From Candidatus Buchananbacteria bacterium (GTDB taxonomy: Bacteria > Patescibacteriota > Patescibacteriia > 2-01-FULL-39-33): 64,000 bases of DNA. The notes below the pieces were generated by a model that saw only the letters and a program-made list of their open reading frames with translations, was not told where the DNA came from and searched no databases. A program made the translations under genes and the position numbers. The DNA lies in the NCBI GenBank assembly GCA_903888345.1, contig CAISTG010000015.1, forward strand, positions 11,474-75,473, written 5' to 3'. Position 1 is the stretch's first letter. Every line of letters starts with the position of its first letter. Below, in pieces: positions 9,001 through 52,805 of this stretch.

Positions 9001-12000
9001 ATGTCCTGATACTGGCCAATAAGATCAACTGCATTTTGGCCATTACTTATAGTTGAGGTTGCAGCATTAAATATCACCACTCGATGATTACTTGAATCAG
9101 CCACAAATAATTGATTATTAACATTATTATAAACAAGACCCGTCAAAGATTTGAGCCTGTTCTGACTTACTGTCGAAGTTGAGGCGTTAAAATCAGTCTG
9201 CCCCAAGACATTGATGGCGTTTTGTCCATTAACTATAGTTGAAGTAGCAACATTAAATATCATAACCCGACTATTCGACTGATCAGCAACAAATAACCTA
9301 CTCCCAACTGAGTCATACGTGACCCTAAATGGATTATTTAATGTCGTCTGCGTATGCCCGCTGGAACTACCGGAAAAATTAGCTTGCCCCAAGACATAAC
9401 TAGCATTTTCACCGTTAGTGATAGTTGAGGTAGCTGCGTTAAAAACCAATACTCGACGATTCAAGGCATCTGCCACAAATAAGCGATTATTCCCGGCGTC
9501 ATATTGAACACCACGCGGATAATTCATAGTACTTGTGGACGCGCTATAAGTCTTAGTAATGAAACTAGTCTGACCCAAGACATTGATTGCGTTTTGTCCA
9601 TTAGCAATAGTCGAGGTGGCGACATTAAACACCATTACTCGATTATTGGTAACATCAGCTACAAATAATCGGTTATTTGTTAGATCATAAGTTAGTCCGG
9701 CCGGTTGGCTTAATGAGTATTGAGTAGTTGTGGAAATGGCAGCACTAAAATCAGCCTGCCCCAAGACATTAACCGCATTTTCTCCATCAGCTATTACAGC
9801 GGTATCATAAACCAAAACTCGCATATTCACGCTATCTGAAACAAATAAACGATCACCAATAGAATCATACGCTAAGCCATCGACGGTATTAAATTTATTC
9901 TGTGATCTTCCGTTAGTTGAGCTCGAATATTCAGTTTGGCCCAAAATATGATCGGGAACATAATCGGCTAAGGTATTATCACTATTCAGATTATAAATCA
10001 TGATCCTATTATTAGTAACACCCTCAGCTACAAATAATCGATGATGAACAGTGTCCAAGGCTACTTCAACAGGTGAAAATAATCCCAATTTATTTCTCCC
10101 CTGATTATTTACATCGTTTTTATTAAAAGTTACTAGTGCGGGATTAGCGGTCACGTCCTGATATTGGCCGATTACATCGACAGCATCGCTACCATCAATA
10201 ATATAGCTGCGAGAAATGGTCACGGTAACTGCATATACTTGCGTGGTTCCATCAGCCGCCGTAACCATGTAGCTGACCGGATTAGAAAAATTTTGCGCCA
10301 CGCCGGAATTTGGACTAATTGAGGTGCCAAAATAACTAATTGTCGGCACCAGCGCTGTAACATCAGTTCCATAGGGCACGGTTGCGGCGATAGTATGTTG
10401 AGCTTCATCAATTATGGCTGTAACTGACAAACTAGAAAAAGCAAAAGAATCAATTCTTTTTGGCTGGCCGAGCACCTCTACTGCCTGCATCGCCTTTTTG
10501 GCATTAATTCTTGTACCGGCCGAAGTGATTCCATGCAAAGAAACCAAGTCATCACCACTGGTCAAAATAATATTTTTTATTTGGGCTGCCGACAGACTTG
10601 AATTATAGCCTTCCATTAAGGCGGCTAAACCAGCAACATACGGAGTAGCCATTGAGGTCCCGCTCAAATAACCGTAAGGCTCGTTTGAGCCATCAGTAAA
10701 TTTTTTAATACTAATTTGGTCGACATAACAACCGCCATGATTATTATCAGCAGCATTAGTTACCCACCTAAAACGGAATTTAAAATTGTTGGTTAGATAC
10801 TTTTTTGGAATCACGATATTACCAATATATGCAGCCGAACCACCAGCGGAACTATCGTCATTTGTCAGCCAATCCAAAACTGTCTCATCTAATCTGAATT
10901 GCTGATTATAGTAGGGCCAAGTACCTTCAGTAAAATTAACGCCATCGGCGCTATATTCAACAGCCAAATAATCAGCGTTCCAACTATACTCCGTATCACA
11001 AGCAGCAGCGAAACTAATAGTCGCTGATTTTGCATCAGTACCAAAATCATATGTTGCCGAAGTTATGGTCGTGTTAGCGTTAGCGGCGTAAGGATAATTG
11101 GGGCGCGCCACATGCAAAACCTTACCCCAAAAAGCATCGCCAGTATCATAAACTTTCCATTGATTGTTTATTCCTCCCAATACCCAACCATTAGGAAATT
11201 CTGAGGTTGGAGTAGTTTCAAAATTCTCATTAAAAACGGAGGCCTCAGAAATAGTGCTATACACATTAGTTCCCGGGGCCGCCACATCAACTGCGGTGGC
11301 ACTATAATCAGCAAAAGAGGCCAACTGATCGTTTTCATTAGTCGCTGTTACGGCAATAATATTATCTAAATTATAATCAGAGGGATAATTATGAAGCACG
11401 TCATTATTTTGACCATTATTTCCAGCCGCCGCGACAAAAATTCCACCTGCAATAGAAAAACGATTGATAGCATCATATTCTGCCTGTGAATAGCCATCAG
11501 AACCAAAGCTGGCATTAATTATTTTGGCACCATTTTGAATTGCAAAATCAATCGCCTTAATTTCACTAGCTACATCCAATTTAAATCTAATAGTCATGAT
11601 TTTTGCCCCACTCGCCACACCGACGACTCCCTTTGAGTTGTTTTTGGCGGCGGCGATAATTCCAGCCACGTGCGTTGCATGCGACGACATATCTACACTC
11701 AAATCGCTATATGCTTCTGGCATCGGATCTTTATCATTATCAACATAATCATAACCATGGCTGCAGCCACCTAAATAGGCGCCATTTTGATCTTTACAAC
11801 CAGATCCATCCCACATATTAGCGACCAGGTCAGGATGATTATAGGCCACACCATTATCGATGATTGCCACAATAACTGGGGAGATTGTCGCCGCATCAGC
11901 AATCTGCCAAGCTTCGGGCGCATCAATATCAGCATCAACAACGCCGCTGCGCGGATTATTATCCGGAAAATTGCCGCCAACTGTTTGACCAGTGTTATCT

Positions 12001-12539
12001 AAACCCCAAAGCAAGTTTTTATAAGTATCATTAGTATTGATAACTGAAGGTCGACGCTGATAATTGGGCTCAGCATATTCGACATTGGGATCGGCTTGTA
12101 ACTCCGCTATTTTCTGAGCGGTAGTCTTGCCATCCTTAATTTGCAAAAAAGACAGATTACCTTTTTTAGAAAATTCCCTCTTTTCCATCTTTCGGGCAGC
12201 ATTAAAAGTGTTGGCCTGTACTTGTCCGGCGGCGGTCTCTAGATTAATTTTTGATTTTTTGTATTTGATAATAACATCGCCCTCAATATAATCTTTTCCC
12301 GCCATTATACTGGGCCTTGAAGAACTGCTTAAACCGCCAGTAACTAGCCGCGCTGACTTCCCAATGTTCGACTGAACTGTTTTAACTTGATCTATAGCAG
12401 AAAAATCGACGGCATTAATTTTGGCCACGGCGACAGTTTGAGCCTGAATAATTTTAGTTGCCGGGCGATTAGAAAAAAATATGAGTGAAATACAAAAAAG
12501 GGCTAGGATAATTCCTCCACCAGCCAAGAACTTCTTCAT
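6099..12539 (-). CDS. Giant secreted protein (~2147 aa). N-terminal subtilisin-like (S8) serine protease, then multiple NHL repeats (beta-propeller), Ig-like domains, a Gly8 linker and a C-terminal Ca-binding-like module.
   Basis: Catalytic triad motifs VAIIDNGV (Asp), SHATHVAGIIAA (His), GTSMATPYVAGLAAL (Ser). More than 10 NHL-like units (RLFVAD..NNRVMVFNVATST). GGGGGGGG linker. Start chosen at MKKFLAGGG (12539), not the track's upstream 12605. The 12605 start would overlap a rho-independent terminator hairpin at 12608-12635. Confidence 0.8.
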   Translation of the reverse strand: MKKFLAGGGIILALFCISLIFFSNRPATKIIQAQTVAVAKINAVDFSAIDQVKTVQSNIGKSARLVTGGLSSSSRPSIMAGKDYIEGDVIIKYKKSKINLETAAGQVQANTFNAARKMEKREFSKKGNLSFLQIKDGKTTAQKIAELQADPNVEYAEPNYQRRPSVINTNDTYKNLLWGLDNTGQTVGGNFPDNNPRSGVVDADIDAPEAWQIADAATISPVIVAIIDNGVAYNHPDLVANMWDGSGCKDQNGAYLGGCSHGYDYVDNDKDPMPEAYSDLSVDMSSHATHVAGIIAAAKNNSKGVVGVASGAKIMTIRFKLDVASEIKAIDFAIQNGAKIINASFGSDGYSQAEYDAINRFSIAGGIFVAAAGNNGQNNDVLHNYPSDYNLDNIIAVTATNENDQLASFADYSATAVDVAAPGTNVYSTISEASVFNENFETTPTSEFPNGWVLGGINNQWKVYDTGDAFWGKVLHVARPNYPYAANANTTITSATYDFGTDAKSATISFAAACDTEYSWNADYLAVEYSADGVNFTEGTWPYYNQQFRLDETVLDWLTNDDSSAGGSAAYIGNIVIPKKYLTNNFKFRFRWVTNAADNNHGGCYVDQISIKKFTDGSNEPYGYLSGTSMATPYVAGLAALMEGYNSSLSAAQIKNIILTSGDDLVSLHGITSAGTRINAKKAMQAVEVLGQPKRIDSFAFSSLSVTAIIDEAQHTIAATVPYGTDVTALVPTISYFGTSISPNSGVAQNFSNPVSYMVTAADGTTQVYAVTVTISRSYIIDGSDAVDVIGQYQDVTANPALVTFNKNDVNNQGRNKLGLFSPVEVALDTVHHRLFVAEGVTNNRIMIYNLNSDNTLADYVPDHILGQTEYSSSTNGRSQNKFNTVDGLAYDSIGDRLFVSDSVNMRVLVYDTAVIADGENAVNVLGQADFSAAISTTTQYSLSQPAGLTYDLTNNRLFVADVTNNRVMVFNVATSTIANGQNAINVLGQTSFITKTYSASTSTMNYPRGVQYDAGNNRLFVADALNRRVLVFNAATSTITNGENASYVLGQANFSGSSSGHTQTTLNNPFRVTYDSVGSRLFVADQSNSRVMIFNVATSTIVNGQNAINVLGQTDFNASTSTVSQNRLKSLTGLVYNNVNNQLFVADSSNHRVVIFNAATSTISNGQNAVDLIGQYQDIIANPLVPNFNKSNTDNSYNPAINKFGLYTPRYLTIDPVHLRLFVTDNFNNRVLVYNLNADGSMASYTPTHVLGQASFTTTTATVMTQSSLKVPNGLAYDFARNYLFVNDAGNNRIMVFDVAEITNGEPAINVLCQADFVTKVSTSTQDHITNSSGFAYDFVHNRLFVNDYSRILVFDVAEITNGEPAINVLGQTDFTSNATATTQAGFDYILDSVYDWVNERLFVAERNNQRVTVFDVAEITNGEPAINVLGQSGYLTNSSATTNGGFKNISALAYDNISERLFVSEGGNNRVTVFDVAEIVNGELAVSVIGQDNYLTLSSGVSTKLLNSPWGIYYYENGNKLFVADSANNRVMVFAVGQTNIVHPVALSYYPQNNTTSTSISTNLQLRFSQPMAKGSGSIALYKTSNDLPLETIDVNSNQVNCSSTGLVTITPANVLAEQTDYYVKIDATALVGVGFAINNYLGITDATTWKFATSDLSGPTLSNIYPSGVQEYGTSSVNLTVTTNENSTCRYAAVSGTAFGAMTPFAVTGAINHKTPISSLTNGSSYTYYIVCQDLSNNTSTEAVASFSVAAVATDNDGPVISNILPDGEQVAGTVNATLVLDTDEAATCKYSDNFSTLFASMTIFSVTGLRHHTTPISGLSNGNSYVYYVICEDFVNNFSSKSTVSFSIALTVVAPPVSGGGGGGGGFIVPPVVSTTSYSIPTNGVSSIGTIGLLGTNLTASLNSVANFITTVSQSSQRQEHKMTVVNLDVTSQIVTLRVESTPQTIVLKLNEKANIDLDQDGKSDISINFSSLAFNQVSLTVKSLIAVQATIDSNGKNIVIPDKLGRIVKVSTVNRPAVYYVSDGLKYLFVNRNTYTTWANDIGDIGNKFSTLKQISQSEFEAIPLGGNLVARSGNLIKFDDSSIIYGVGAQGRLYKFVDASVQSRLYGKAVPYVVQAGFRNDYYNYGTAVETLTATSVKPE

Positions 12540-12600
12540 AATAAAATTAGAAAATTTAATAGTATACTTCTGTATATTATAGCACAAAAATATTAGCGAA

Positions 12601-12635
12601 ACCAAAAAAGAGAACTGGGGATAACAGCTCTCTTT
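12601..12635 (-). terminator. Rho-independent terminator downstream of the SDR gene
   Basis: Hairpin aagagaactg...cagctctctt (10 bp, 1 mismatch), then a T-run on the minus strand (plus accaaaaaag). Confidence 0.5.
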
Positions 12636-25151: not shown

Positions 25152-28100
25152 TTATTCTTCGTTAGGTACGGTTTGAATTCCGTAACTTGTTGAGTAAGAG
25201 CCACCGACCGTTCCTTCCGGTACTCTAACTTCTACAATGATTCTGATCTGTCTTCCTAATTTTGTTGTATCTAAATCACCAGTTAAATTCATACTCCCAG
25301 AATAGGTATTGGCTTCACTAATAACGATGGCGCTCTCGCCAGAATTGACATCATTAGATTGAGCCGAATAGAAACGGATATTAGAAGCTGCAGGAATCAA
25401 GTTGGCGCCGCTAACAAAATCAGCGAATCTCATTCGTAAACCAGTTTCGGCAGTAGGAGCAGTGACATCAAATTGCCAAGCCCAACCATTAGCCCAAGAG
25501 CCGTCGGCAGTAGCAAAACTCTTAACAGTAGAAATTCCAGTAACAGCCAGAACAGTATCATCAGCAATAGTCGTAAAGCTCCCGGCTGTATAACTAGCTC
25601 CCATTAAGTTTCCCGCTTCATCTGCAACGTTACTCGAAACATAAATATAATAAGAAGTTTCTAAGTCTAAATTTGCAAGCGGATTAATAACGGCGCGAGT
25701 GCCTCCATTTTCTACGCTGATTGAAGCTGGCACGACAGAATTATCACTTGCCTTTCGTAATTCAATATTAGCAGCGGTTAAGGTGGTGGCTTTCATTGCT
25801 TCCGAAAAATCAACATAAGGACGAGCATTGAGGGCTACACCAGTAGCATCAGCTAATGGAGATTGACCAGCAACAATTGGTGCAACTAGGTCAGCGGTAT
25901 TTTCGGTAGTTGTAAAGCCAGAATTAGTTGAACCAATATTAGCAATCATGACATTTCCGACTTTATCAGAAACTCCAGAAATTATGAAATAGTAAGCAAC
26001 ACTATAATCTAAATTTGCATCAGGAATGAAATATACTTTTTGATTACCTTCAGCCAATACCTTTCCTGCAACTTGCGTGTCGGTAGAATCAACGCCAACC
26101 ATCATTAATTTAATATTGTCAGCATTAACTGTGTCAGTATTTAAAGCTTCAGAAAAATTGAAGAAAATAGGGGCCGAAATAGCTACATTAGTAGCACCAT
26201 TAGCTGGAGACATAGTTACTACATAAGGCGCAGTAACATCGGCCTGAGTAAAGGTAGCTACAGCTGTACCTGGCAATAAGTTACCACTAGAAACTGTAAT
26301 ATTTACATTACCAGCGGTTGTTTTTCTCAATGTTGTTTCAGCTACACCATTAACTAATGTTAGAATGGTGTCGCCTAAAGCTGCGCCATTATCAGCACTA
26401 ACCAAAACAATCGTTCCGCTTTGGTTGGTGGTTGGATGATCCCACTGATCTCTTCCAGTTACAGTGACGATACTGGCAGTATTAGTATCAACGGGCGAGG
26501 TGGCTACGACAGTCACCTTGCTAATTGGAGCTGGCACGACAATTATATTTTGAGTAGCGGTTGCGAAATTTCCCGAAAAATCAGTGGAAGTCCAGGTAAC
26601 CACAGTAGTTCCGACTGGAAAGCCAGCGACCGGAGCATCATTGGTAATGACTGGAGCTGCATCGACAACGTCAGATGTTATTGGAGATCCAATACTGACT
26701 GTTGACAAAACACCATTAGCGACAAATCCAGTGACGTCGGCCGGGGCAGTAATCGCCGGAGCTGTCGTATCATGAACATGAACATTAAAGTTTGAAGTGG
26801 CGGTATTTCCCAAAGCATCAGCTGAGGTGCAAGTGACAGTTGTGTCACCCAAAGCAAATTGGGATCCTGAAACTGGCAAACAAGCAACAGTGGTTGTGCC
26901 ATCAAATACGTCAACGGCTTCTGGGCTAACATAATCAACGATAGCGCCAGTGATTGAAGTAGCTTCAGCGACAACCTCTGCATGAGAGGCAATAACTGGG
27001 GCAACAGCATCAATCTTAATATTCTTATTAAAACTCAAAGAATTAGTCTCACTTGGAACTGGCAAGGTCAGATTTGAATCATTGCCGGCAAAATCGCGAA
27101 TAGACTGACCATCTAAATTTAAGGCATCACCAGCAATAGTGTCCAAATCCAAAGAATTATCACCTGATTGGACAGTGTAGCTGAAACTCACAATTGTTGA
27201 ACCGGTACCAGTGGAGTAATCGGCAGTGCGATCAGTCGCACCAGTTTCTAAAATTAAATATGGGCGTTGATCGATAGTATCCCAGCAATGGTCACCCCAA
27301 TAACCACAACCCCAAGGTCGATAATATGTTCCAACATTTACAGGTTCGCTAAATTCAACTGAGACAACAATGTTTTCACCAGCCTTGTAATCGCCATCAG
27401 CCTTATCGGAAGTAACATTAACAACTGTTGCTGGAGTGACATCATAAGTAATTCCAGTACTGGTCAAGGTTCCAGCATTGCCAGACATGTCAGTTCCGTC
27501 AAAAGTAACAGCATAGACACCTTCAGCCAAGGAAATTCCGGCGGCAGTTAAAGAGGCTTGAGAAATGGTATGAGCTCCAATAGTCAATTCGCTGCCAGAT
27601 AAAGTATAAACTGCTGAAACAGGCCCATTAACACTAATGGAACCGCTAGCCAAAGCTTCACTCAAAGTATAAGAAACTGTGTAATCAGCTTTAATGAAAG
27701 CATCAGTAGCTGGAGCAGTAGCAGAGAAAGCCGGCTTGGTGGTATCGACGACGACAACATTAAAAGTTGTGGAAGTAGCCACGTTGCCATGGGCATCTGT
27801 TTTGGAACAAGTGACAGTAGTGGTACCCAAATAGAAGGTTGAACCAGAGGCTGGCAAGCACGATGAGATTAAATCACCATCAACCAAGTCATGGGACATT
27901 GGCGCAGTGAAACCGACGCCAGCACCCAAAGTTGGGTCAATTGAAGCTTCAACTCCAGTAATGTCGGCATGAACATCAATCACTGGGCTAGTGGTATCAA
28001 GAATCGTGACTATTTGAGTAGCAGTTGCGAAATTTCCGGAACCATCAGTCGCCGTCCAGGTGACAGTTGTTTCTCCTGGGGCAAAACCAGCTGCAGGAGC

Positions 28101-29957
28101 ATCATTGGAGATAACTGGTGAAGCATCAGCGATATCGGAAACAATTGGTGATCCTAAGCTGACAATGGTAAAAGGTCCAGTTGCTTCATTAGTAACATCA
28201 ATCGGTGCAGTGATGACTGGTTTAGTTGTATCAATTACGCTAACAACAAAAGTTGAAGTTTGAATATTTGAGGCACTATCACTGGCAGTGCAAGTCACGG
28301 TAGTATTGCCCAACGCAAAAGTTGAGCTAGAAACTGGCAAACAAGAAACTGAAACCGCACCGTCAATATTATCAGTTGCTAATGGAGTATCATAAGTGAC
28401 TGTGGCGCCAGCAAATGAAGTTGCCTCAATACCAGAAACATCAGCATGGGCAACGATTTCCGGTTTAGTAGTATCAATAAAATTAATGATAACGTCACCA
28501 TGGGCAGTCAAACCACTAAAACTCAAGGTGACACTCCCCTTGTTAATAAAGGTTAGGGTTCGAGTAACAAGTCCGCCGACAGTGTTGCCACTGCCGCCAA
28601 TAATCCCCCCTGCGGAAGCTAAAATGGCAACTGGAGTATTATCTTGAACTTGATTGCCAGCAGCATCAGTAACAGTGATAGTCAAAGTCACGGTTGTACC
28701 TGGGGTTAGACTAGCTTCTGGAGATACTGTACTAGCTGAGATCGTGCCATTTCGCGCCGCACCGGCGGTAAATGATACGGATTCTGTCTGATCAATTAAT
28801 ATTCCACCAATTGTTACGGAAACAATTTTATCTTCCGCCTTAGTAGATTGTAAACGAATGATAGCTTGTCCATTAACATCAGTAGTAACCGTTAATGGAT
28901 CATAGGAAGCGCCGGTACTAGGAGCTGCCGAGATACTAACTACTTGACCTGCGAGAACATTTCCGAAAGCATCCTTAGCGGTAATAGTATAAGTAGCTGT
29001 ACCTCCGTCAGTCGTAACAACGCCCGGATTATTGCGAGTCAAAGTAGATTGACTGGCACTAATTGGACCACGGTTGACAGTCACAGTAAAAGTGGTTGAA
29101 GTTGCATGATTGCCGGCGACATCAGTAGCATTACAAGTAACAGTTGTGTTTCCGATGGCAAAAACAGACCCAGAAGCTGGCAAACAGACTGCTGTTCCAG
29201 TCGCATCAACATTATCAGTTACAGCAGGAGCAGTATAAATAACATGGCCAGAACCCAAAGCATCAGCGGTTGCAGTGACGGTTGAGTGAGGAGCGATTAC
29301 TGGAGCCACCGTATCAACAGTATAAGTAACAATGACTTGAATATAATCGACTGACGCTGTTCTATTTCTAGCTGGGGTTGCGTTGGTATTTATGGCAGAT
29401 AAATCAACGCCAAAATTGGCGCTATTTATATCAGCTGGAGTCCATGAAGTGCCCCAAAGATCAGATACTGACCCGTAAGTTGCAGCACCTTCAGTAGTTG
29501 GCCAATTTGTTCCAGTTACAGCCTTATTATCCCCAGTAATTACTCCACCCTTAACTAAACTAACTACATGATCACGGATTAATGGGTCAGAGGTACCACT
29601 AGTATAACGACCAACCACGACTTGGATTCCATTAATTGTCGCATTAGTCGGAATTGCAAAACCATAAGAACGCCCTGCCACATAATTGCTAGTGGCAGTT
29701 CCACCGCCAGGCAAATCAACGGTGGCATAAACATTATTATTGGAAACAATATTAGCAGGAACTGTCCACGCATATGTTCCAATTCCAGCGACGTTTGTAC
29801 CAGAACCAGCGAAATTTGGACCACTGGTCGCAGCTGAAGCTGTATTAATAAAAAAGCCGCAGACAAAAAGCATTGTCGCGACTACTGCAATTTTTCCTCC
29901 ATTTTTAAAAACCTTATTTCTTGAAAAAGAAATAATTGACTCGAATAATTGTTGCAT
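25152..29957 (-). CDS. Giant secreted adhesin/S-layer-like protein (1601 aa) with multiple HYR (hyalin-repeat) domains and SbsA_Ig/Big_5-like domains
   Basis: Repeated units of the type VAPVIA.H..V.A......A.V.Y..P.A.D..D.......C.P.SGS.F..G.T.VTC.A.D..GN.A (HYR). TAPYVVTMSPANGATNV...(Big_5-like). Signal-like N-terminus. Confidence 0.75.
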   Translation of the reverse strand: MQQLFESIISFSRNKVFKNGGKIAVVATMLFVCGFFINTASAATSGPNFAGSGTNVAGIGTYAWTVPANIVSNNNVYATVDLPGGGTATSNYVAGRSYGFAIPTNATINGIQVVVGRYTSGTSDPLIRDHVVSLVKGGVITGDNKAVTGTNWPTTEGAATYGSVSDLWGTSWTPADINSANFGVDLSAINTNATPARNRTASVDYIQVIVTYTVDTVAPVIAPHSTVTATADALGSGHVIYTAPAVTDNVDATGTAVCLPASGSVFAIGNTTVTCNATDVAGNHATSTTFTVTVNRGPISASQSTLTRNNPGVVTTDGGTATYTITAKDAFGNVLAGQVVSISAAPSTGASYDPLTVTTDVNGQAIIRLQSTKAEDKIVSVTIGGILIDQTESVSFTAGAARNGTISASTVSPEASLTPGTTVTLTITVTDAAGNQVQDNTPVAILASAGGIIGGSGNTVGGLVTRTLTFINKGSVTLSFSGLTAHGDVIINFIDTTKPEIVAHADVSGIEATSFAGATVTYDTPLATDNIDGAVSVSCLPVSSSTFALGNTTVTCTASDSASNIQTSTFVVSVIDTTKPVITAPIDVTNEATGPFTIVSLGSPIVSDIADASPVISNDAPAAGFAPGETTVTWTATDGSGNFATATQIVTILDTTSPVIDVHADITGVEASIDPTLGAGVGFTAPMSHDLVDGDLISSCLPASGSTFYLGTTTVTCSKTDAHGNVATSTTFNVVVVDTTKPAFSATAPATDAFIKADYTVSYTLSEALASGSISVNGPVSAVYTLSGSELTIGAHTISQASLTAAGISLAEGVYAVTFDGTDMSGNAGTLTSTGITYDVTPATVVNVTSDKADGDYKAGENIVVSVEFSEPVNVGTYYRPWGCGYWGDHCWDTIDQRPYLILETGATDRTADYSTGTGSTIVSFSYTVQSGDNSLDLDTIAGDALNLDGQSIRDFAGNDSNLTLPVPSETNSLSFNKNIKIDAVAPVIASHAEVVAEATSITGAIVDYVSPEAVDVFDGTTTVACLPVSGSQFALGDTTVTCTSADALGNTATSNFNVHVHDTTAPAITAPADVTGFVANGVLSTVSIGSPITSDVVDAAPVITNDAPVAGFPVGTTVVTWTSTDFSGNFATATQNIIVVPAPISKVTVVATSPVDTNTASIVTVTGRDQWDHPTTNQSGTIVLVSADNGAALGDTILTLVNGVAETTLRKTTAGNVNITVSSGNLLPGTAVATFTQADVTAPYVVTMSPANGATNVAISAPIFFNFSEALNTDTVNADNIKLMMVGVDSTDTQVAGKVLAEGNQKVYFIPDANLDYSVAYYFIISGVSDKVGNVMIANIGSTNSGFTTTENTADLVAPIVAGQSPLADATGVALNARPYVDFSEAMKATTLTAANIELRKASDNSVVPASISVENGGTRAVINPLANLDLETSYYIYVSSNVADEAGNLMGASYTAGSFTTIADDTVLAVTGISTVKSFATADGSWANGWAWQFDVTAPTAETGLRMRFADFVSGANLIPAASNIRFYSAQSNDVNSGESAIVISEANTYSGSMNLTGDLDTTKLGRQIRIIVEVRVPEGTVGGSYSTSYGIQTVPNEE

Positions 29958-44370: not shown

Positions 44371-44457
44371 ATTTTTGGTTTAATTTAAGGGCTTAGCCCT
44401 GAGGCGTAAAGCGCCACCAATAACGGTGGTGACAAGTTACAGTAAACAAGTTCTAGG

Positions 44458-44763
44458 CTCAGCGGACTGGATTCGAACCAGTAACCTACCGGTTACACTT
44501 ATCCCTAACTTTCGTTAAAGCGTGGACTATATCATTACCTTTTTTCCTGACGGAATTTTAGGTATCGGGCGCTTCGAATTAGCTACTGCTAACCCTACTC
44601 CCTTGCGGGATAGTCTCTGCACCTTTCCGCCGAGGCGGACTTGGCTCAGGATTACCATTTTAAAGGCTTCCCTGAATTCACCCGATTTTCATTCCGAAGT
44701 TTCCTTCGGAAGCTGCGTCTTATTTGTTCACAGCCGGTTGCTCTACCATTGAGCTACCGCTGA
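44458..44763 (-). tRNA. tRNA-Asn(GUU) interrupted by a 234-nt group I intron in the anticodon loop (between nt 35 and 36)
   Basis: 5' exon (44730-44763): TCAGCGG TA GCTC AATGGTA GAGC A ACCGG CTGT. 3' exon (44458-44495): TAA CCGGT AGGTT ACTGG TTCGAAT CCAGT CCGCTGA G. Spliced loop CUGUUAA and G73 match E. coli tRNA-Asn. Acceptor, D, anticodon and T stems are all perfectly paired. Confidence 0.8.
44496..44729 (-). ncRNA. Group I self-splicing intron (tRNA-anticodon-loop type)
   Basis: Contains the conserved R element GTGCAGAGACTATCC (consensus GUUCAGAGACUA) and S element GATATAGTCC (consensus AAGAUAUAGUCC), which form P7. P/Q-like AATTCAGGGAAGCC / AATCCTGAGCC. Internal guide GCAGCU pairs with the exon end GGCUGU with a U-G pair at the splice site. 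The intron ends in G (omega-G) before TAACCGGT. Too short to encode a protein. Confidence 0.75.
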
Positions 44764-44910
44764 GCTTAAAGCTTGTTTATATATCATCCGTTTTTTAACG
44801 GACTTATTTTAAGGTAGCGATGTTAATCATATTAGCAATAATTTCGACCTTTGTCAATAATTTATTGGCTGTGGACAAACCACTAACGATTACACTAATT
44901 ATTTAAATTT

Positions 44911-47722: not shown

Positions 47723-49654
47723 TTAGAGCGCTGATTTTTGTTTGATCAGTTCGCTATGCTGTTTGATGATTTCACCGAAGGCTTGGGAGTCTCCGATTTT
47801 TTCGGCTCTTTGCATCTCGTTTTGCAAACGAGAAATTTCACGATTAAAATAATTACTTTTCAAGAGACGAATTAAATTATCTAATTCGTTCTTGGCATCT
47901 TTGGCTTCCAAGTCAAAAAAATCCTTTTGCGCCAAAAGATAGGACTGTTCTAAATATTTTACGGCATCAGGATTAGCGGCTTGAGTGACGACCATCATAT
48001 AGAATTGGTCGAATATATTTTGTTCTTCCCGCTCCGTGGCCGTGAGAGTGAACAGTTCATTGTTTCTAGTATAAAACAATATTAAATCTTTGTAAAGACC
48101 CTGAGCCAAATCATCGGCAATTACTTCCGGTGCCAGAATTTCCGGTAATTTTGGCAAAAATCCGGGCTGAATCCAAATAATGGCTAAAATTTGCCGAAAG
48201 ATGCGTAATTCTAGGCTCATAATGGTATTTGGGGACAAGACCGCGCTAGCAGGTTTTTGGGGCTCTACAGTGGCCTTGGACGGGGTCTTCAGAGTGCCTC
48301 CAAAACGCGAAATTAGCTCGCGCAAGGCCTCTTCCCTCACGCTCAGCCGATTAGCGATTTCATGAGTCCAATAGTCTTTTTCAATAGGATCATCAATTTT
48401 AGCAATCTTTTCGCAGAGGAATTTTGCGACTTGTTTTTTGGTGTCCAAGTCAGTAATATTTTTATCTTTAATTGATGAGTTCCAAAAATATTCTAACGCC
48501 GGTTGCGCCTCAGCGATCGCTTGTTTCCAGTCATCCGGATTATTCTTTAAGCACTCATCCGGGTCCTTGCCATTAGGAATCGAGATAATTTTTAAATTAA
48601 GATTATAACCTAAAGCGGGATCAATGAACTGGGAAGGTTTACCGAAACGATCAACGTTATTAATTACTCGTTCTTCCTTAACGATACTGGTCAGTAATTC
48701 ATCGCCACGGTTGGTGGCTTTTTGTCCAGCGGCGTCAGCGTCCAAGGCTAAAAAAATATTATTTGAGAAACGACGTAATAATTGTAATTGTTCTTTGGTT
48801 AAGGCGGTACCAGAGGAAGCGACGGTATTTTTGAAACCATGTTGATAACAACTAACGGCATCCATCTGTCCTTCGACCACTACCACAGCATCTTGTTTTC
48901 TAATTTCATTTTTGGCTTGCGCTAAAGCAAAGACGATTGCGCTTTTGTTATAAATATCGGTTTGCGGACTATTCACGTATTTCGCCGGCTCATCTTTATC
49001 CAGTGTTCGCCCAGTAAAACCGCAGACACGTCCATTATGATCAATAATCGGAAACATAATACGATTGCGGAAACGATCATAGTAACCACTCCCCCGTTCC
49101 TTCCTAATACAAAATCCGGCGGCAAATATTTCAGTGTCAGCAAAATTCTTTTTGCGCAAAAAATCAAACAGATTGCTCCAGTCATTAATCGCATAACCAA
49201 TCCGGAAAGTTTCAATCGTATCTTCCTGCAAACCACGATATTCCAAATACTCCCGCGCTTCTTGCGCCCGCGGTGATTGCAACAAAACCTGATGCCAATA
49301 CTTGGTCGTCATTTCACAAACGTCATACAAACGATTTTTTTTGTTATGCGCTTCCGGATTCTGTCGGGTTAAGGTAACGCCAGTTTTCTGAGCTAAGATT
49401 TTCAACGCTTCAGCAAATTCAATGTTTTCAATTTTCATTAAAAACTCAAAAGCATCGCCACCTTCGCCGCAACCAAAACAATGAAAACTACCGCGCGCCG
49501 GTGAAACAATCATTGACGGTGTCTTTTCATTATGAAAAGGGCAATTAGCTTTATAGGCACCCACACCCGCCGGAACCAATTTCAAATACTCGCCGATGAA
49601 ATCGACGATATCCAATTTATCCTTAATTTCTTGTATTTCCGGGGAAGAGGCCAT
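47723..49654 (-). CDS. dnaG: DNA primase DnaG (643 aa)
   Basis: Zn-ribbon CPFHNEKTPSMIVSPARGSFHCFGCGEGGDAFEF. RNA-pol domain. TOPRIM VVVVEGQMDAV and LALDADAAGQKAT. Upstream of rpoD, the classic operon order. Confidence 0.85.
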   Translation of the reverse strand: MASSPEIQEIKDKLDIVDFIGEYLKLVPAGVGAYKANCPFHNEKTPSMIVSPARGSFHCFGCGEGGDAFEFLMKIENIEFAEALKILAQKTGVTLTRQNPEAHNKKNRLYDVCEMTTKYWHQVLLQSPRAQEAREYLEYRGLQEDTIETFRIGYAINDWSNLFDFLRKKNFADTEIFAAGFCIRKERGSGYYDRFRNRIMFPIIDHNGRVCGFTGRTLDKDEPAKYVNSPQTDIYNKSAIVFALAQAKNEIRKQDAVVVVEGQMDAVSCYQHGFKNTVASSGTALTKEQLQLLRRFSNNIFLALDADAAGQKATNRGDELLTSIVKEERVINNVDRFGKPSQFIDPALGYNLNLKIISIPNGKDPDECLKNNPDDWKQAIAEAQPALEYFWNSSIKDKNITDLDTKKQVAKFLCEKIAKIDDPIEKDYWTHEIANRLSVREEALRELISRFGGTLKTPSKATVEPQKPASAVLSPNTIMSLELRIFRQILAIIWIQPGFLPKLPEILAPEVIADDLAQGLYKDLILFYTRNNELFTLTATEREEQNIFDQFYMMVVTQAANPDAVKYLEQSYLLAQKDFFDLEAKDAKNELDNLIRLLKSNYFNREISRLQNEMQRAEKIGDSQAFGEIIKQHSELIKQKSAL

Positions 49655-49794
49655 GGGTTTTAATGCTTATGATTACTATTCAATAATACAACAAATCACC
49701 CCCAACCAGCAACGTTGACAAAATTTGCTAAAAATGATAATTTTCAGTATCGAAGTACCTTAACAATTGGCCACAAACAACAGGAGAACATGAC

Positions 49795-50040
49795 ATGAAC
49801 CATTTAACCGATGATTTGATCAGAGTTGCGACGCTAAAAATCGCCGCCCGCTACGTAATTGGAAAGCAGCGAACTCACGATTGTCTGTACCATGGACAGG
49901 GCCTCTTTGAGATTGGCGAATACTCAGTTCTAGCTGAAATTAAAGCAGCGGTTCAAGAAATTGATTACAAGCTAATTGTAACTTCAATGGTCTATTTACC
50001 CAACGGTAATTTGTTCGTTAATTTTGATCGCTTTATTTAA
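49795..50040 (+). CDS. Hypothetical small protein (81 aa)
   Basis: SD aggaga 8 nt upstream of the ATG. Confidence 0.45.
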   Translation: MNHLTDDLIRVATLKIAARYVIGKQRTHDCLYHGQGLFEIGEYSVLAEIKAAVQEIDYKLIVTSMVYLPNGNLFVNFDRFI

Positions 50041-50062
50041 TTAACACACAGGAGTACTGTCA

Positions 50063-50434
50063 GTGATTAAAGCCTCTGAACTCGACCTGCGCCTGGAACA
50101 GCATCGCCAAGAAATTCTCGCTCACTTCAATTCTGCCTTGATCCAACTGGTTACTAAATTTAATAGCAATCGGAATTTCCTAAGACTTTGGGAGAAACTT
50201 GACGACGCCACTTTCGAAAACTCGACCCCCTTCGCCGTCAATTCTGATTTTAAGATCTCACTCTTAGACATTATCAATCTGCCCGGTTACGAAAAGTTGC
50301 GCGAACTTTGCGCTGAGCGGAATTTCCGTTTGAAAATCGAACTCAAAAATGATCCCGTCATTAGCGAAGCGATCATTTGGCCGACACTTATGATTACGAT
50401 TACTAAAGTTCAACCTAGCGCTCACCCAGAGTGA
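50063..50434 (+). CDS. Hypothetical protein (123 aa, GTG start). Its C-terminus is encoded partly by the conserved leader repeat.
   Basis: SD aggag 11 nt upstream of the GTG. Ends ...TKVQPSAHPE inside repeat copy A. Confidence 0.4.
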   Translation: MIKASELDLRLEQHRQEILAHFNSALIQLVTKFNSNRNFLRLWEKLDDATFENSTPFAVNSDFKISLLDIINLPGYEKLRELCAERNFRLKIELKNDPVISEAIIWPTLMITITKVQPSAHPE

Positions 50435-50460
50435 GACCGAACAGAAAGGAAGCCGACATG
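50409..50460 (+). repeat. Conserved 52-nt leader element, copy A (hairpin CTCAC-CCAGA-GTGAG plus SD AAAGGAAG, then ATG)
   Basis: 49/52 nt identical to 51443-51493: TTCAACCTAGCRCTCACCCAGAGTGAGACCGARYAGAAAGGAAGCCGACATG. Confidence 0.7.
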
Positions 50461-50892
50461 CCGAAACAATCAACTATCGGTGCCGCACTTAAGTCGCGAC
50501 ATGAAAATATTTTGAAAGCACGGGCGGCAGAAGAGGCAATCAGAAAAGATAATATTGCCAGACCATTTCGCCAACAAGCAGAAAAGATGGTCGACGAAAT
50601 TATGGCGTTCGCTAATAATTGCAGTTTGCCTGACGAACTCATACTTAAGAGAGAATGGGAAGTAGGCTATATAGACATTCAAAAAGAGTTTAAGGAAGTA
50701 ATCGAGCAAGAAATATACTCGGGGCGCTTAGTTCCTAGTAATCTAATCACCGAATTTTGTAAAAACATCTTCGAGAACTTTAAAACTCAAGGCGGAGGCA
50801 AAATTCTGACTGATTTTTGTACCAAGCAAGACCTGCCCCTAAACATTTCTTTAAATGCGGGCTGGACCATCTCCTGCACCATTACCTGGTAA
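50458..50892 (+). CDS. Hypothetical protein (144 aa), paralog of 51491-51928
   Basis: ATG preceded by aaaggaag. C-terminal ...LTDFCTKQDLPLNISLNAGWTISCTITW resembles the paralog's ...LTDFCQENQLTLCLALSGSIIFLTISW. Confidence 0.5.
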   Translation: MPKQSTIGAALKSRHENILKARAAEEAIRKDNIARPFRQQAEKMVDEIMAFANNCSLPDELILKREWEVGYIDIQKEFKEVIEQEIYSGRLVPSNLITEFCKNIFENFKTQGGGKILTDFCTKQDLPLNISLNAGWTISCTITW

Positions 50893-50931
50893 ACGCTGAA
50901 CCATTCCAACCGAAACAAGGATCAGAAAATC

Positions 50932-51408
50932 GTGGGCAACCAACCGACTGAAGATACGCACCAACTACTGGAAAGATTACGTCAGAATTATGAAGATTAT
51001 CTGGCGGACTGTCGACGACAGAATGAAGTCATTCGCGAGGAAATGCAACAATTAATCTGTCTGACTTTTAACGAGCGGCTTAATAATCAATTCGCCCAAC
51101 TTACCAATCTGCGCTATTGGGCGCCACGCTTTGAATTGCAATCGGAAACAGCCAACCAATGCCCCATCTGCTCCATTGCTATTGACGGCATCAAACCTGA
51201 CCACGGCTGGGTCAACCATGCCTACTTTGCTGAAAAGGCAGCGGAAATGTCCGCCAACTATTCCACGATCAAATTTTATTGGGAGAGATTAGGATTCGAC
51301 GTCAAAATTCAACGCAATGAAAATAAAGAATTCAACGGAACGATTGTTTTGCAGATTGTTATCGGTTGGCTCGGAAATTCAAAACGCGGCCACCCACGCA
51401 GACAATAA
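50932..51408 (+). CDS. Hypothetical protein (158 aa, GTG start) with a CPIC motif
   Basis: ORF. Occupies the same position as 50063-50434 in the second tandem module. Confidence 0.4.
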   Translation: MGNQPTEDTHQLLERLRQNYEDYLADCRRQNEVIREEMQQLICLTFNERLNNQFAQLTNLRYWAPRFELQSETANQCPICSIAIDGIKPDHGWVNHAYFAEKAAEMSANYSTIKFYWERLGFDVKIQRNENKEFNGTIVLQIVIGWLGNSKRGHPRRQ

Positions 51409-51442
51409 ATAGTGATCATTTGGCCAAACGATTAAATTACAT

Positions 51443-51493
51443 TCAACCTAGCACTCACCCAGAGTGAGACCGAGTAGAAAGGAAGCCGACATG
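51443..51493 (+). repeat. Conserved 52-nt leader element, copy B
   Basis: See copy A. Upstream similarity extends about 20 nt further (acgatta...ttcaacc). Confidence 0.7.
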
Positions 51494-51928
51494 TCAAATC
51501 TAGGGGAGCTACTGCACCTCAAATATACTGAGGCAGTCGAGGCAAGAAAGATCAATGAGGAAAAGATCCGGCAACGGAAAACCTATCCTTTTTCTGATTA
51601 TCTTATTCAATTAATTACTACTTTGCCTGAGACACTGCTATCAGTTGCCGCAAGTGGGAGGAAATATTTCAAATTGGATTTAGCAAATGAATTCGCTAAA
51701 GAAATACAAGAAATTGAAGATGGTTACGGTTTTCGGCACAATCAGCCAGCAAAACAGATGATAGACAGCCTGTATAATGATTTAAAGTTTAATTTCGAAA
51801 AAAATTCTTTGGCACCACTAACTGATTTTTGCCAGGAAAACCAGCTAACACTTTGCCTTGCACTTAGTGGCTCAATAATATTCCTAACTATTAGTTGGGA
51901 AGAATGGCCACCGGCGCCAACTGAATGA
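51491..51928 (+). CDS. Hypothetical protein (145 aa), paralog of 50458-50892
   Basis: Same leader and SD, and similar C-terminus. Confidence 0.5.
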   Translation: MSNLGELLHLKYTEAVEARKINEEKIRQRKTYPFSDYLIQLITTLPETLLSVAASGRKYFKLDLANEFAKEIQEIEDGYGFRHNQPAKQMIDSLYNDLKFNFEKNSLAPLTDFCQENQLTLCLALSGSIIFLTISWEEWPPAPTE

Positions 51929-51989
51929 AAATATTGCACTTTCAACAAGAGCCACTCTTACGAGCGGCTCTTTTTTAATTATTGAAATT

Positions 51990-52406
51990 TTAGTTCTTCC
52001 ACAGACCATGCAGATTGCAATAGGCGCGAGCGATAACTGCTTCAGCTTCTTCGGGAATTTCAAATTCCGTTTCTGGTAGATCTCCCGGATGAAAGAAATG
52101 CTTGTAGCTAATAGTATCTTCAGGAGCATTAGCGGTTTTTGGCAAGACTACCAACAACTCAACCCATTCGATATAGTGCGCCCCTTCCATCGGATGGGCG
52201 ACTGAACCGACTTTGACGGCCACCTTAGTGCCATCACGCTCCACTACCGGCACATGCTTTTCGGTTGCAGCGTCAGTGCTATTTTCAGTTTGTAATGCCA
52301 TTTCCTGGCCACAACAAACCAAAGTGCCACCACCAACATGGACCACTTCAACAATATTGCCACAGACTGAGCATTTATAAACTTCGTTTAAAGATGTAAC
52401 TGCCAT
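51990..52406 (-). CDS. dfx: Desulfoferrodoxin (2Fe superoxide reductase), 138 aa
   Basis: N-terminal desulforedoxin [28 protein letters not shown] domain [11 protein letters not shown]..., [18 protein letters not shown]. Confidence 0.85.
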
Positions 52407-52418
52407 ATGTTTTTATTA

Positions 52419-52805
52419 CGTCATCCTGAGCTTGCGAAGGATCTCATTCTTTAACCACTAAAATTTTCAGATAAATCCTTCCAACCAGGATTAAAATTAT
52501 TAATTAAATCTACTTTCTTTTGCCTTATCCATCCCTTAATTTGCTTTTCTCTAATAAGCGAATCATTTATCGACTCACTATATTCATACCAAACTAATTT
52601 ATCCGCATTATACTTCCTAACAAATTGAGATATTCTTTGTTCTTTGGTTTTATATTCCCAAATTCTTCGCAATAAATCATTAGTAACTCCGATATACAGT
52701 ACCTTATTATATTTATTAGTAGTTATATAAACATAATAGTATTTTTCCGACATATGTAAAGTAACATGGGATTCTTCACTCCGTTAAACTTCGTTCAGGA
52801 TGACG
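52419..52805. mobile_element. 387-bp palindromic-repeat element carrying a GIY-YIG gene, inserted between rubrerythrin and desulfoferrodoxin
   Basis: Terminal inverted repeats cgtcatcctgagc (52419-52431) and gttcaggatgacg (52793-52805), 12/13 match. Same CGTCAT...ATGACG end family as the empty element at 32351-32441. The left end is 13 nt upstream of the dfx start codon. The right end is 11 nt past the rbr stop. Confidence 0.55.
52451..52753 (-). CDS. GIY-YIG nuclease-superfamily protein (COG2827/UPF0213-like), 100 aa
   Basis: YYVYITTN...LYIGVTNDLLRRIWEYK. GIY-YIG motif with the conserved Arg/Glu. Confidence 0.75.
   Translation of the reverse strand: MSEKYYYVYITTNKYNKVLYIGVTNDLLRRIWEYKTKEQRISQFVRKYNADKLVWYEYSESINDSLIREKQIKGWIRQKKVDLINNFNPGWKDLSENFSG

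Follow-up and report, generated by a model that had tools for sequence, protein, structure and literature searches.

Gene-conversion and partial-duplication tracts between tandem paralogs represent the concerted evolution of part of a repeat unit, and homology-facilitated illegitimate recombination is the type of a one-sided illegitimate join. In integrons, the inverse core of the attC site follows the consensus RYYYAAC. In T4-type phages, ORFans are shuffled by promoter-early stem-loop (PeSL) cassettes, which carry a strong sigma-70 promoter and a terminator-grade stem-loop, are present at about 50 per genome and have been shown to recombine into mini-circles (Arbiol et al. 2010, PMC2839356). 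The repeat described here was found in a 64-kb window (the whole stretch of DNA that was analysed) of a Patescibacteria-like genome. It resembles the PeSLs in being a short, near-identical intergenic unit that leads from an upstream stop codon through a stem-loop to the Shine–Dalgarno sequence (SD) and start codon of a small ORFan, and in lying in a hyperplastic region: among close relatives, ORFans are inserted or deleted at the units. It differs from them in that neither leader contains a promoter-like or terminator-like site, the stem has 5 bp and no T-run, and there are two copies in 64 kb of a cellular chromosome, with no evidence of ongoing recombination. By appearance, the repeat looks like a copied gene junction and not like a special RNA switch.

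The repeat is located within a five-gene operon encoding ORFan proteins (A0-B1-C1-B2-C2, Table 1), between dnaG and the desulfoferrodoxin gene (dfx). A degenerate 52-mer search of the window returned the two plus-strand copies of the core only (0 of 100 shuffles gave a match) and confirmed the original prediction of an element that occurs twice at 49/52 identity (94%), with a hairpin and an SD. The mismatches are at 50420 (G/A), 50441 (A/G) and 50442 (C/T). The hairpin, CTCAC-CCAGA-GTGAG, is at 50421–50435 in copy 1 and at 51454–51468 in copy 2, and the SD, AAGGAAG, at 50446–50452 and 51479–51485, in both copies 5 nt 5' of the ATG. Downstream, the likeness of the copies fades about 8 nt beyond the ATG. 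Upstream, about 20 nt of further similarity had been predicted; the extension is real and the length was too short, as the likeness reaches 50368 and 51411, with AGYGATCATTTGGCC conserved at 14 of 15 positions, then a poorly matching stretch with a 10-nt indel.

Table 1 Features of the operon and of the two repeat copies, with positions in the 64-kb window
Feature	Position	Strand	Description and basis
Promoter-like site of the operon (putative)	49715..49743	+	TTGACA, 17 nt, TAATTT; TG two bases 5' of the second hexamer; read from the sequence
A0	49795..50040	+	81-aa ORFan, first gene of the operon; ORF
B1	50063..50434	+	123-aa ORFan, GTG start; ORF; ortholog in L017 66% identical
Repeat copy 1, upstream arm	50368..50408	+	B1 coding sequence, AGCGATCATTTGGCC...
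Core copy 1	50409..50460	+	TTCAACC, hairpin, B1 stop TGA (50432–50434), SD, C1 ATG (50458–50460)
C1	50458..50892	+	144 aa, member of a rare ORFan family; ORF
C1–B2 spacer	50893..50931	+	TTCCAAC and B2 SD (AAGGA); no hairpin
B2	50932..51408	+	158-aa ORFan, GTG start; ORF; ortholog in L017 59–60% identical, there directly 3' of B1
Repeat copy 2, upstream arm	51411..51441	+	Non-coding relic, B1-type 3' end; 10-nt deletion
Core copy 2	51442..51493	+	Hairpin, SD, C2 ATG (51491–51493)
C2	51491..51928	+	145-aa paralog of C1; ORF
Intrinsic terminator	51947..51977	.	Shared with the desulfoferrodoxin gene, which converges on the operon; fold −15.7 kcal/mol, z = −3.75

No third leader copy was present in the window, using up to 3 mismatches or nhmmer --max. 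The 20-mer CTCACCCAGAGTGAGACCGA gave only a chance Streptomyces match in 185,579 species genomes and no match in JGI metagenomes and viral contigs; the gapped pattern TTCAACCTAGC-N18-26-GAAAGGAAGCC was not found in metagenome contigs, nor was the operon in phage records by blastn. A dispersed REP- or MITE-like repeat was rejected on the grounds of two collinear copies only and no terminal inverted repeats. Assemblies in ENA that come independently from other samples contain the structure with 100% identity. An assembly artefact, in which two strain haplotypes would have been joined via a shared repeat, is extremely improbable: the contig is metagenome-derived and a short contig from the same population, L022, is visibly chimeric, but L001, from another sample, covers both copies and everything between them at 100% identity, and the junction of B2 with the relic is unique sequence, so that the join is not a repeat-mediated one. 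L022 was also considered as an alternative haplotype and rejected, its tail being GC-rich foreign sequence.

The proteins encoded downstream of the two leaders had been thought to share only a loosely conserved C-terminus (LTDFC...TISW). Instead, C1 and C2 were found to be homologous end to end, with 25% amino acid identity (E = 6e-6). Their aligned codons are 44.8% identical at the nucleotide level and synonymous sites are saturated; at conserved residues, 16 of 37 codons are identical, and codon usage predicts 14.4. Judged by these comparisons, C1 and C2 are true, ancient paralogs. Near-identity is thus limited to a short tract, with saturated paralogous sequence on its flank, as is to be expected of a copied junction. 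B1 and B2 could not be aligned and had no detectable similarity, so that the tandem two-gene modules of the original prediction are not established, and the duplication of such a module is contradicted by the closest relative found, L017, whose B1 and B2 genes are direct neighbours and which has no C gene.

Repeat copy 1 takes in the final ~22 codons of B1 together with its stop, the TGA being in the 3' arm of the hairpin. B1 residues IIWPTLMITITK align to LIWPTLLITISK in L017 and to LSYQTLYLDIKR in L013, so the upstream part of copy 1 is authentic B1 coding sequence; the C-terminal half of B1 is homologous to a 191-aa protein of L013 (E = 4e-12). Each copy had been described as preceded by a GTG-start ORF running into it, which applies to B1 and fails for B2, whose stop (51408) is 3 nt 5' of the extended repeat copy 2 and 33 nt short of the core. 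In the frame equivalent to B1, the copy 2 arm reads VIIWPND-stop, truncated by this stop and the 10-nt deletion, and it bears a new palindrome, ATCATTTGGCCAAACGAT. Within this relic, ATCATTTGGCC is identical to the window's own B1 at 11 of 11 positions, unlike B1 of L017 (CTGATCTGGCC). The B1 3' end is therefore functional in copy 1 and a dead relic after the B2 stop in copy 2, that is, non-functional sequence carried along by copying.

Relatives were compared at the same locus. The dnaG–desulfoferrodoxin island is syntenic across several uncultivated Patescibacteria-like lineages, and its three linked ORFan families (A, B and C) evolve much faster than their flanking genes in order, copy number and sequence; the gene order of the island is different in every relative, and island proteins diverge far faster than the flanks. 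L017 (Dfx 93% identical at the amino acid level) has the arrangement A-B1-B2-terminator. Homology between the window and L017 stops at 50406–50407, 2 nt 5' of core copy 1, and restarts at 50939, in the B2 start region, which is orthologous to the B1–B2 junction of L017; it stops again at 51389 and restarts at 51938. The second of these window-only segments (51390–51937) holds copy 2 and C2. The L017 junction matches the leader at 21 of 46 positions (~46%). The leader is absent from the syntenic loci of L012, L013 and L017, an absence from relatives that had been named beforehand as a refutation of the predicted element, and the regions upstream of C homologs in L004, L008, L009, L012, L013 and L015 are unrelated to it, mostly with promoters of their own. 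At 4-fold sites of dfx, the window and L017 are identical in 26 of 52 cases (50%), which is near saturation; the 6% divergence of the leaders is therefore much younger than that split. The copy accordingly postdates the split from the nearest relative and is missing from the orthologous loci. The duplicated junction records, in a form that can be dated, how islands of this kind are rebuilt.

We consider it moderately probable that a comparatively recent, non-reciprocal recombination gave rise to the two leaders, within a chromosomal island of small ORFan genes that evolves fast. Some 95 nt of the B1–C1 junction now lie also 5' of the anciently diverged paralog C2, comprising the last ~22 B1 codons, the stop, the 23-nt intercistronic spacer with its SD and the start codon. 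The function of this segment would be ordinary, namely to end B1 and to supply C1 and, as the copy, C2 with a ribosome-binding site and start codon. The event may have been the copying of a segment, a patch resembling gene conversion, or a join with sister-strain DNA that was homologous on one side and illegitimate on the other, probably with the B1–C1 junction as the source. Where the original prediction had left a choice between selection on the RNA and gene conversion, recombination or copying is supported by the saturation of C1/C2 against the 94% identity of the leaders and by the B1 relic and the absence of the element from homologous loci; a riboregulator or thermosensor is not. As in conversion tracts between tandem paralogs, a sharp-edged patch of near-identity lies in saturated paralogous units and a non-functional neighbour was co-copied. 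The difference is the left edge, at which the B2 stop is joined to a B1-type 3' end without homology, so classical two-sided conversion does not fit and an illegitimate join is needed on that side, perhaps in the manner of homology-facilitated illegitimate recombination.

Other observations speak against copying. A tract of 52 nt is short for RecA-type conversion, and a donor haplotype with the order B1-leader-C2 was not observed. The downstream edge of identity falls almost exactly at the C start codons, which a chance breakpoint does not predict.

This edge at the start codon would also fit a core that acts in cis and is kept by purifying selection in each copy, either as a small two-helix RNA or as a DNA/protein-binding palindrome just 5' of the SD, setting C1 and C2 expression via mRNA processing or 5' stabilisation, translational coupling or regulator binding. 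We regard this as rather unlikely. The core (3–4 mismatches in 52–53 nt) is better kept than the relic arm (9 mismatches in 30 nt plus the indel; Fisher p = 0.011), which could mean purifying selection on the core and to that extent counts against copying; the naive p value was not accepted as proof of selection, since the relic differences are clustered and may stem from one or two complex events. Of the four substitutions around the core, three are in a 4-bp outer helix and preserve its pairing (G-C to A-U, a compensatory pair, and U-A to U·G), likewise an observation against copying. All 9 pairs are kept between the two copies, with one G-C/A-U double change and one U-A/U·G change, but 256 of 500 shuffles reach the observed value, and two sequences give this test no power. 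The B1–B2 junction of L017 has a 4-bp hairpin (CTCT-GGCAA-AGAG) in an analogous place between TTCAAC and the SD. Against such an element, the leader is missing at all other C loci, only two copies exist, in one operon and in none of the collections, and the copy 1 hairpin is translated as the B1 tail. The hairpin itself is limited to 5 bp, and the minimum free energy of −7 to −8 kcal/mol is no better than that of shuffles (fold z-scores +0.74, +0.48, −0.12 and −0.20).

RNA thermometers and translational riboregulators (ROSE, fourU; Rfam) likewise have a leader hairpin a few nt 5' of the SD. Their defining occlusion of SD and AUG is absent here: neither SD nor AUG is sequestered, and in the 61-nt leaders the SD remains free of pairing in the minimum-free-energy structures as well as in the centroid ones. 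No covariance model matched the leader in Rfam 15, searched over the whole window at the gathering threshold and over 49650–52050 at E ≤ 10, where only terminator noise was returned. With a fold not above shuffles, a free SD, no Rfam match and no further copies, the riboregulator or thermosensor that had been suggested is not supported. A dedicated regulatory role is probably absent, and we propose that the 5-bp hairpin came along as a passenger or, at the most, is of minor importance to the mRNA. The leader thus fails as a regulatory RNA candidate, and the interest that remains lies in its setting in the dnaG–desulfoferrodoxin island.

If the 3' half of the core were coding, translation of C1 and C2 would begin at a GTG (50431; 51464) overlapping the B1 stop (GTGA), and a conserved N-terminal extension, MRP(N/S)RKEAD, would be made by termination–reinitiation. 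In each copy, the GTG-to-ATG stretch has no stop and is in frame with C, and the N-terminal extensions of the homologs P0003 and P0004 are similar in length and contain an RP-like motif. However, nine open codons occur by chance about 65% of the time, the strong SD is 5' of the ATG with none 5' of the GTG, at the copy 2 GTGA only a 33-aa TTG ORF ends, and the conservation of the 5' half is left unexplained. We judge this start very unlikely.

The recombination-derived copy was further weighed against an explanation in which exchangeable C-gene cassettes have the leader as their 5' boundary, a homology handle for the gain, loss or swap of divergent C genes between strains in a mode like that of PeSL cassettes, the two copies then stemming from two cassettes of different origin behind one junction. 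This is unlikely, although several features of the island agree with it. The window has C genes and L017 does not, and the breakpoints lie at the core's left edge, so that the relatives' indel boundaries (50406–50407 and the 51390–51937 segment) coincide with the element as in PeSL-like units. TTCAAC(C) is found to the left of both C segments (50409, 51442), TTCCAAC (50904) and TTCAAC (51941) to the right, and a single TTCAAC at each of the two empty sites of L017. The variable gene order, the fast divergence of island proteins and a terminator duplicated between cassettes in L012 point the same way. On the other hand, TTCAAC is a common hexamer, with 30 occurrences on the plus strand of the window, and the divergence between window and L017 is too great for a safe reading of breakpoint microhomology. 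There are two copies only, another C gene behind the same leader was not seen in any haplotype, and the window ORFs of at least 90 aa include no recombinase, transposase or reverse transcriptase. Nor is the similarity between the leader and the C1–B2 spacer significant (238 of 2000 shuffles); with it was dropped the idea of a TTCAAC...SD framework at all intercistronic junctions, with the hairpin as a 23-nt insert. Derivation of the leader from a decayed terminator copy (GCACTTTCAACAAGAG versus AGCACTCACCCAGAG) was also dropped, the alignment being unconvincing.

A stronger version, in which the leader is a chromosomal, promoter-less analogue of the PeSL, junction recombination with TTCAAC at every breakpoint shuffles divergent ORFan alleles near dnaG and the hairpin marks the unit, appears distinctly unlikely. 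If more haplotypes carried different C genes behind the same junction, the locus would be a cellular counterpart of the phage ORFan-shuffling cassettes. Integron cassettes are similar in that they have a short conserved site at the boundary of a small gene without a promoter, and RTTCAAC fits RYYYAAC; unlike attC, the site here lacks an extended imperfect palindrome, and conservation is on the 5' side of the gene and not on the 3' side. An attC-like site was rejected, as no GTTRRRY partner was present within 200 nt downstream, and neither an integron integrase nor any recombinase-family Pfam match was found in ~58 scanned proteins of the 64-kb window. A TR/VR pair of a diversity-generating retroelement (DGR) was rejected as well, since the mismatches (G/A, A/G, C/T) are not adenine-specific and the window lacks a reverse-transcriptase domain.

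The function of the proteins was searched using Pfam, PHROGs, PADLOC, NCBIfam, a PDB sequence profile and Foldseek against PDB and BFVD, all with negative results; these include A0 (Pfam, PHROG, PADLOC and NCBIfam) and the AF2 model of C1 (pLDDT 80), which had no fold match in PDB or viral structures. In a word search, C1 retrieved itself alone among 5.8 billion clustered proteins, and a profile of C1 and C2 matched nine clusters in 1.84 billion representatives. With hhalign, C gave a weak, in-register match to B1 (38 columns, P = 0.016) and nothing against B2 or A, and a C-terminal domain common to A, B and C was rejected.

For A0, orthologs were found in L017 (69% identical) and in L013 and L019 (25–34%). 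The region 49708–49769, which includes the putative operon promoter, is 76% identical to the region 5' of the A gene in L013/L014, and L017 has the same TTGACA-17-TAnnnT arrangement; a consensus promoter scan did not call the site, and its promoter role is suggested by these hexamers and their recurrence. L017 and L012 have terminators in the corresponding position that are 83–91% identical to the intrinsic terminator at the other end of the operon.

A single plus-strand operon of five ORFan genes (A0, B1, C1, B2 and C2) is flanked on one side by rpoD-dnaG and on the other by genes for desulfoferrodoxin (Dfx, dfx), a GIY-YIG protein, rubrerythrin and a TrwB-like ATPase. The leader before the paralogs C1 (copy 1) and C2 (copy 2), searched as a degenerate 52-mer, had exactly two matches in the window and 0/100 in dinucleotide-preserving shuffled controls; the repeat is real and chance is ruled out. 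The original prediction of two near-identical copies was thereby borne out, and the hairpin CTCAC-CCAGA-GTGAG and the Shine-Dalgarno (SD) sequence AAGGAAG, 5 nt 5' of the ATG, were present as described. The core copies differ at 50420 (G/A), 50441 (A/G) and 50442 (C/T). Using a repeat finder, the ungapped match was lengthened to 57 nt and a collinear 15-mer (AGYGATCATTTGGCC, 14/15) was located at 50368 and 51411. Upon gapped alignment, 15-mer and core were joined via a stretch of low similarity containing a 10-nt indel, giving a full repeat of ~98 nt (copy 1) and ~88 nt (copy 2); downstream, similarity fades ~8 nt past the ATG. A small ORF was expected to run into each repeat, which holds for B1, whose stop TGA (50432-50434) falls within the hairpin's 3' arm, but not for B2, which stops 3 nt upstream of extended copy 2. 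No third copy was detected in the window (nhmmer), and further copies were found in none of the genome, metagenome and viral collections.

Features of the island and regions compared with the closest relative found (contig L017)
Feature	Position	Strand	Detail
Promoter-like site	49715-49743	+	TTGACA-17-TAATTT
A0	49795-50040	+	81 aa
B1	50063-50434	+	123 aa
Leader core, copy 1	50409-50460	+	
C1	50458-50892	+	144 aa
B2	50932-51408	+	158 aa
Leader core, copy 2	51442-51493	+	
C2	51491-51928	+	145 aa
Terminator	51947-51977		fold z=-3.75
L017 homology block	49571-49654		92%
L017 homology block	49682-50406		74%
L017 homology block	50939-51389		69%
L017 homology block	51938-52058		83%
Absent from L017	50407-50938		leader core, C1, spacer
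Absent from L017	51390-51937		B2 tail, relic, leader, C2

The locus was reproduced at 100% identity in independent ENA assemblies from other samples, one of which (L001) spans both repeats. The short ENA contig L022 is identical to the window as far as 50124, within B1, and continues into GC-rich foreign sequence encoding an alpha/beta-hydrolase-like fragment (L022 929-1145); on account of this tail it was rejected as an alternative haplotype and assigned to chimeric metagenome assembly.

C1 and C2, thought to resemble each other at the C-terminus only, were aligned from end to end (25% identity, E=6e-6); B1 and B2, proposed as partners in tandem modules, showed no detectable relationship on sequence comparison. 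At conserved C1/C2 residues 16/37 codons are identical, with 14.4 expected from codon usage, and nucleotide identity over aligned codons is 44.8%. Against 94% identity in the leader cores, the coding sequences are thus saturated, which disagrees with a plain recent duplication. None of the five proteins (0/5) matched Pfam, PHROGs, PADLOC or NCBIfam, and C1 matched only itself among 5.8 billion clustered proteins. A C1+C2 profile retrieved nine clusters in total from 1.84 billion representatives, with ~140-167 aa and the conserved C-terminus GGGK...DFC...L...I.W in common. An AF2 model of C1 from the C-family alignment (pLDDT 80.4, moderate confidence) predicted a helical fold with a three-stranded sheet; it had no significant structural match in PDB or BFVD, and the C1/C2 sequence profile had none in PDB.

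Contigs with distant C homologs were retrieved for locus comparison. L013 is syntenic, with the order rpoD-dnaG-[A 88 aa, C 152 aa, B 191 aa]-dfx-rubrerythrin-TrwB-like; its flanking proteins are 59-79% identical to those of the window, the island proteins just 27-36%. The order in L012 is [137-aa gene]-terminator-promoter-C-terminator-dfx, in L016 C is followed by an A-B fusion, and in L019 an A-type gene adjoins dfx. No leader-like sequence lies upstream of C in the compared C loci; in most of them a separate promoter and a strong SD precede the gene. L013 shares 76% identity with the operon promoter region, and two L012 terminator copies share 91% and 85% with the operon terminator; at such distances regulatory non-coding sequence is therefore recognisable, yet the leader is not.

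L017 was found using the neighbouring desulfoferrodoxin as anchor (Dfx 93% identical). Its island consists of A (69% amino acid identity), B1 (66%), B2 (59-60%) and a terminator, with no C gene, and the first window/L017 breakpoint falls 2 nt upstream of the leader core. Four-fold degenerate sites of dfx are identical at 26/52 positions, hence neutral sequence is near saturation between the two. Since, in addition, only 21/46 positions (~46%), chiefly SD and ATG, agree between the leader and the B1-B2 junction of L017, the 6% leader divergence is much younger than the split.

The dnaG-desulfoferrodoxin interval (49655-51990) is a hypervariable island, syntenic across several Patescibacteria-like metagenomic lineages, with three linked ORFan families (A, ~81-88 aa; B, ~123-191 aa; C, ~140-167 aa). 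Comparison of its arrangements (A-B1-C1-B2-C2; A-B1-B2; A-C-B; C-(A-B fusion); X-C) showed that gene order differs in every lineage and that A, B and C travel together. Identity across lineages is 27-69% for island vs 59-93% for flanking proteins. The bidirectional island/dfx terminator (window 51933-51985; L012 477-529 and 1120-1166; L017 ~560-610) is 83-91% identical between organisms, the adjacent C proteins only ~27%; duplicated in L012, one after each of two island genes, it is a second repeated non-coding boundary within the same island. A stand-alone 100-aa GIY-YIG protein is encoded between dfx and rubrerythrin (52451-52753, minus strand); in L013 this gene is missing there and dfx adjoins rubrerythrin. 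It is possibly a mobile insertion.

The B1 C-terminus (...RLKIELKNDPVISEAIIWPTLMITITK...) was aligned to the L013 B protein (...RLKVGLKTEPLINEGLSYQTLYLDIKRKNT) and the L017 ortholog (...RLKIEMKNEPVINEGLIWPTLLITISK...), so that ATCATTTGGCCGACACTTATGATTACGATTACTAAA of copy 1 encodes an authentic conserved part of B1. Its copy-2 counterpart comes after the B2 stop codon; this relic is non-coding, reads VIIWPND-stop in the B1-equivalent frame with a 10-nt deletion, and has the motif ATCATTTGGCC of the window's own B1, unlike CTGATCTGGCC of L017 B1. The relic bears the mark of a copying event in which the junction and part of a B1-type gene were carried over together; it lacks the signature of two leaders each kept by independent selection. 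The gene conversion or recombination suggested originally was thus supported, with the refinement that part of B1 was copied too.

The best-supported account, which we hold to be somewhat favoured by the evidence, is a plain copy of ~95 nt of the B1-C1 junction before C2. Non-reciprocal recombination in the window's lineage would have placed the junction before an already ancient C2. No homology exists where the B2 stop meets the mid-B1 3' end, so this left join must be illegitimate; the right side could be homologous, anchored by the old junction and the first codons. Alternatively, sister-strain DNA (B1-leader-C2-terminator) could have been acquired with the conserved terminator and dfx as right anchor, which would amount to one-sided homology-facilitated illegitimate recombination. 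The role of the copied sequence would then be ordinary, namely the B1 stop plus SD and start codon for C. As an event such a copy is ordinary; its setting, a fast-evolving ORFan island, is unusual.

Identity that stops at the start codon, a core better kept than the relic (4/53 vs 9/30 mismatches, p=0.011) and outer-helix substitutions that keep pairing point to something beyond a plain copy and would suit a cis-acting element under selection in both leaders, a reading considered unlikely. The relic changes, however, are clustered, and may represent one or two complex events; they produced an 18-nt near-perfect palindrome in copy 2 (ATCATTTGGCCAAACGAT, 51415-51432, GGCC at its centre) that is not in copy 1 (ATCATTTGGCCGACACTT). 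These changes have the look of one templated (quasi-palindrome) mutation or of a new protein-binding site.

Leaders were folded as 61 nt, and as 103-113 nt with context, using shuffles as control. Folding energies were -6.9 to -16.5 kcal/mol (z-scores -0.20 to +0.74), close to chance; the 5-bp hairpin was the only structure common to both, the SD was single-stranded, and Rfam returned no leader match at gathering thresholds (whole window) or at E<=10 (operon region). The proposed riboregulator or thermosensor therefore found no support. A two-helix model from the copy-1 fold was fully compatible with copy 2, where pair 50408-50442 is A-U instead of G-C and pair 50409-50441 U.G instead of U-A. 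This preserved pairing is a genuine but weak hint, because 256/500 shuffles reached the observed value (two sequences give no power), one changed paired position falls in the frayed margin of the repeat, and wobble lets about half of all transitions retain pairing. At the corresponding place the L017 junction carries a 4-bp hairpin, no better than chance (z=+0.9).

Both window-only C segments carry TTCAAC(C) at the left edge (50409, 51442) and TTCCAAC (50904) or TTCAAC (51941) at the right, and both "empty" L017 sites hold a single TTCAAC, the expected residue of target duplication or microhomology-mediated deletion; the leader would then be a cassette boundary or recombination handle. Its layout resembles that of PeSL cassettes in T4-type phages, which run from the upstream stop codon via a stem-loop to the SD and start of an ORFan and mediate ORFan shuffling; what the leader lacks by comparison is the strong promoter, the terminator-grade stem and the ~50 copies per genome of PeSLs (PMC2839356). 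We regard such a handle as unlikely. The hexamer TTCAAC is frequent in the window (30 per strand), leader and C1-B2 spacer are not significantly similar, and window/L017 divergence is too large for a safe microhomology reading. Within the 2.4-kb island TTCAAC occurs 5 times vs ~1 expected from its window-wide frequency, and the B2 coding sequence holds two copies of AATTCAACGSAAYGA 23 nt apart (51306-51343). No sigma-70-like promoter or terminator was called in either leader, and no recombinase, transposase or reverse-transcriptase domain among ~58 window proteins scanned. An integron attC was rejected, RTTCAAC fitting the inverse-core consensus but having no GTTRRRY partner within 200 nt, as was a DGR template/variable repeat pair, the mismatches not being adenine-specific.

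Elsewhere in the window, a group I intron (Rfam RF00028, 96 bits; 44503-44739, minus strand) interrupts a tRNA gene (exons ~44740-44775 and 44440-44502); ARAGORN called no tRNA in the window as is and one after in silico intron removal, its anticodon depending on the exact splice boundaries. Three giant surface proteins were predicted, of 1344 aa (1493-5527; GLUG repeats, peptidoglycan-binding domain), 2168 aa (6099-12605; subtilase, NHL and Big_5 domains) and 1601 aa (25152-29957, minus strand; HYR and Ig-like domains). Together with several radical-SAM/SPASM genes, they form a profile typical of small-genome episymbiotic bacteria.
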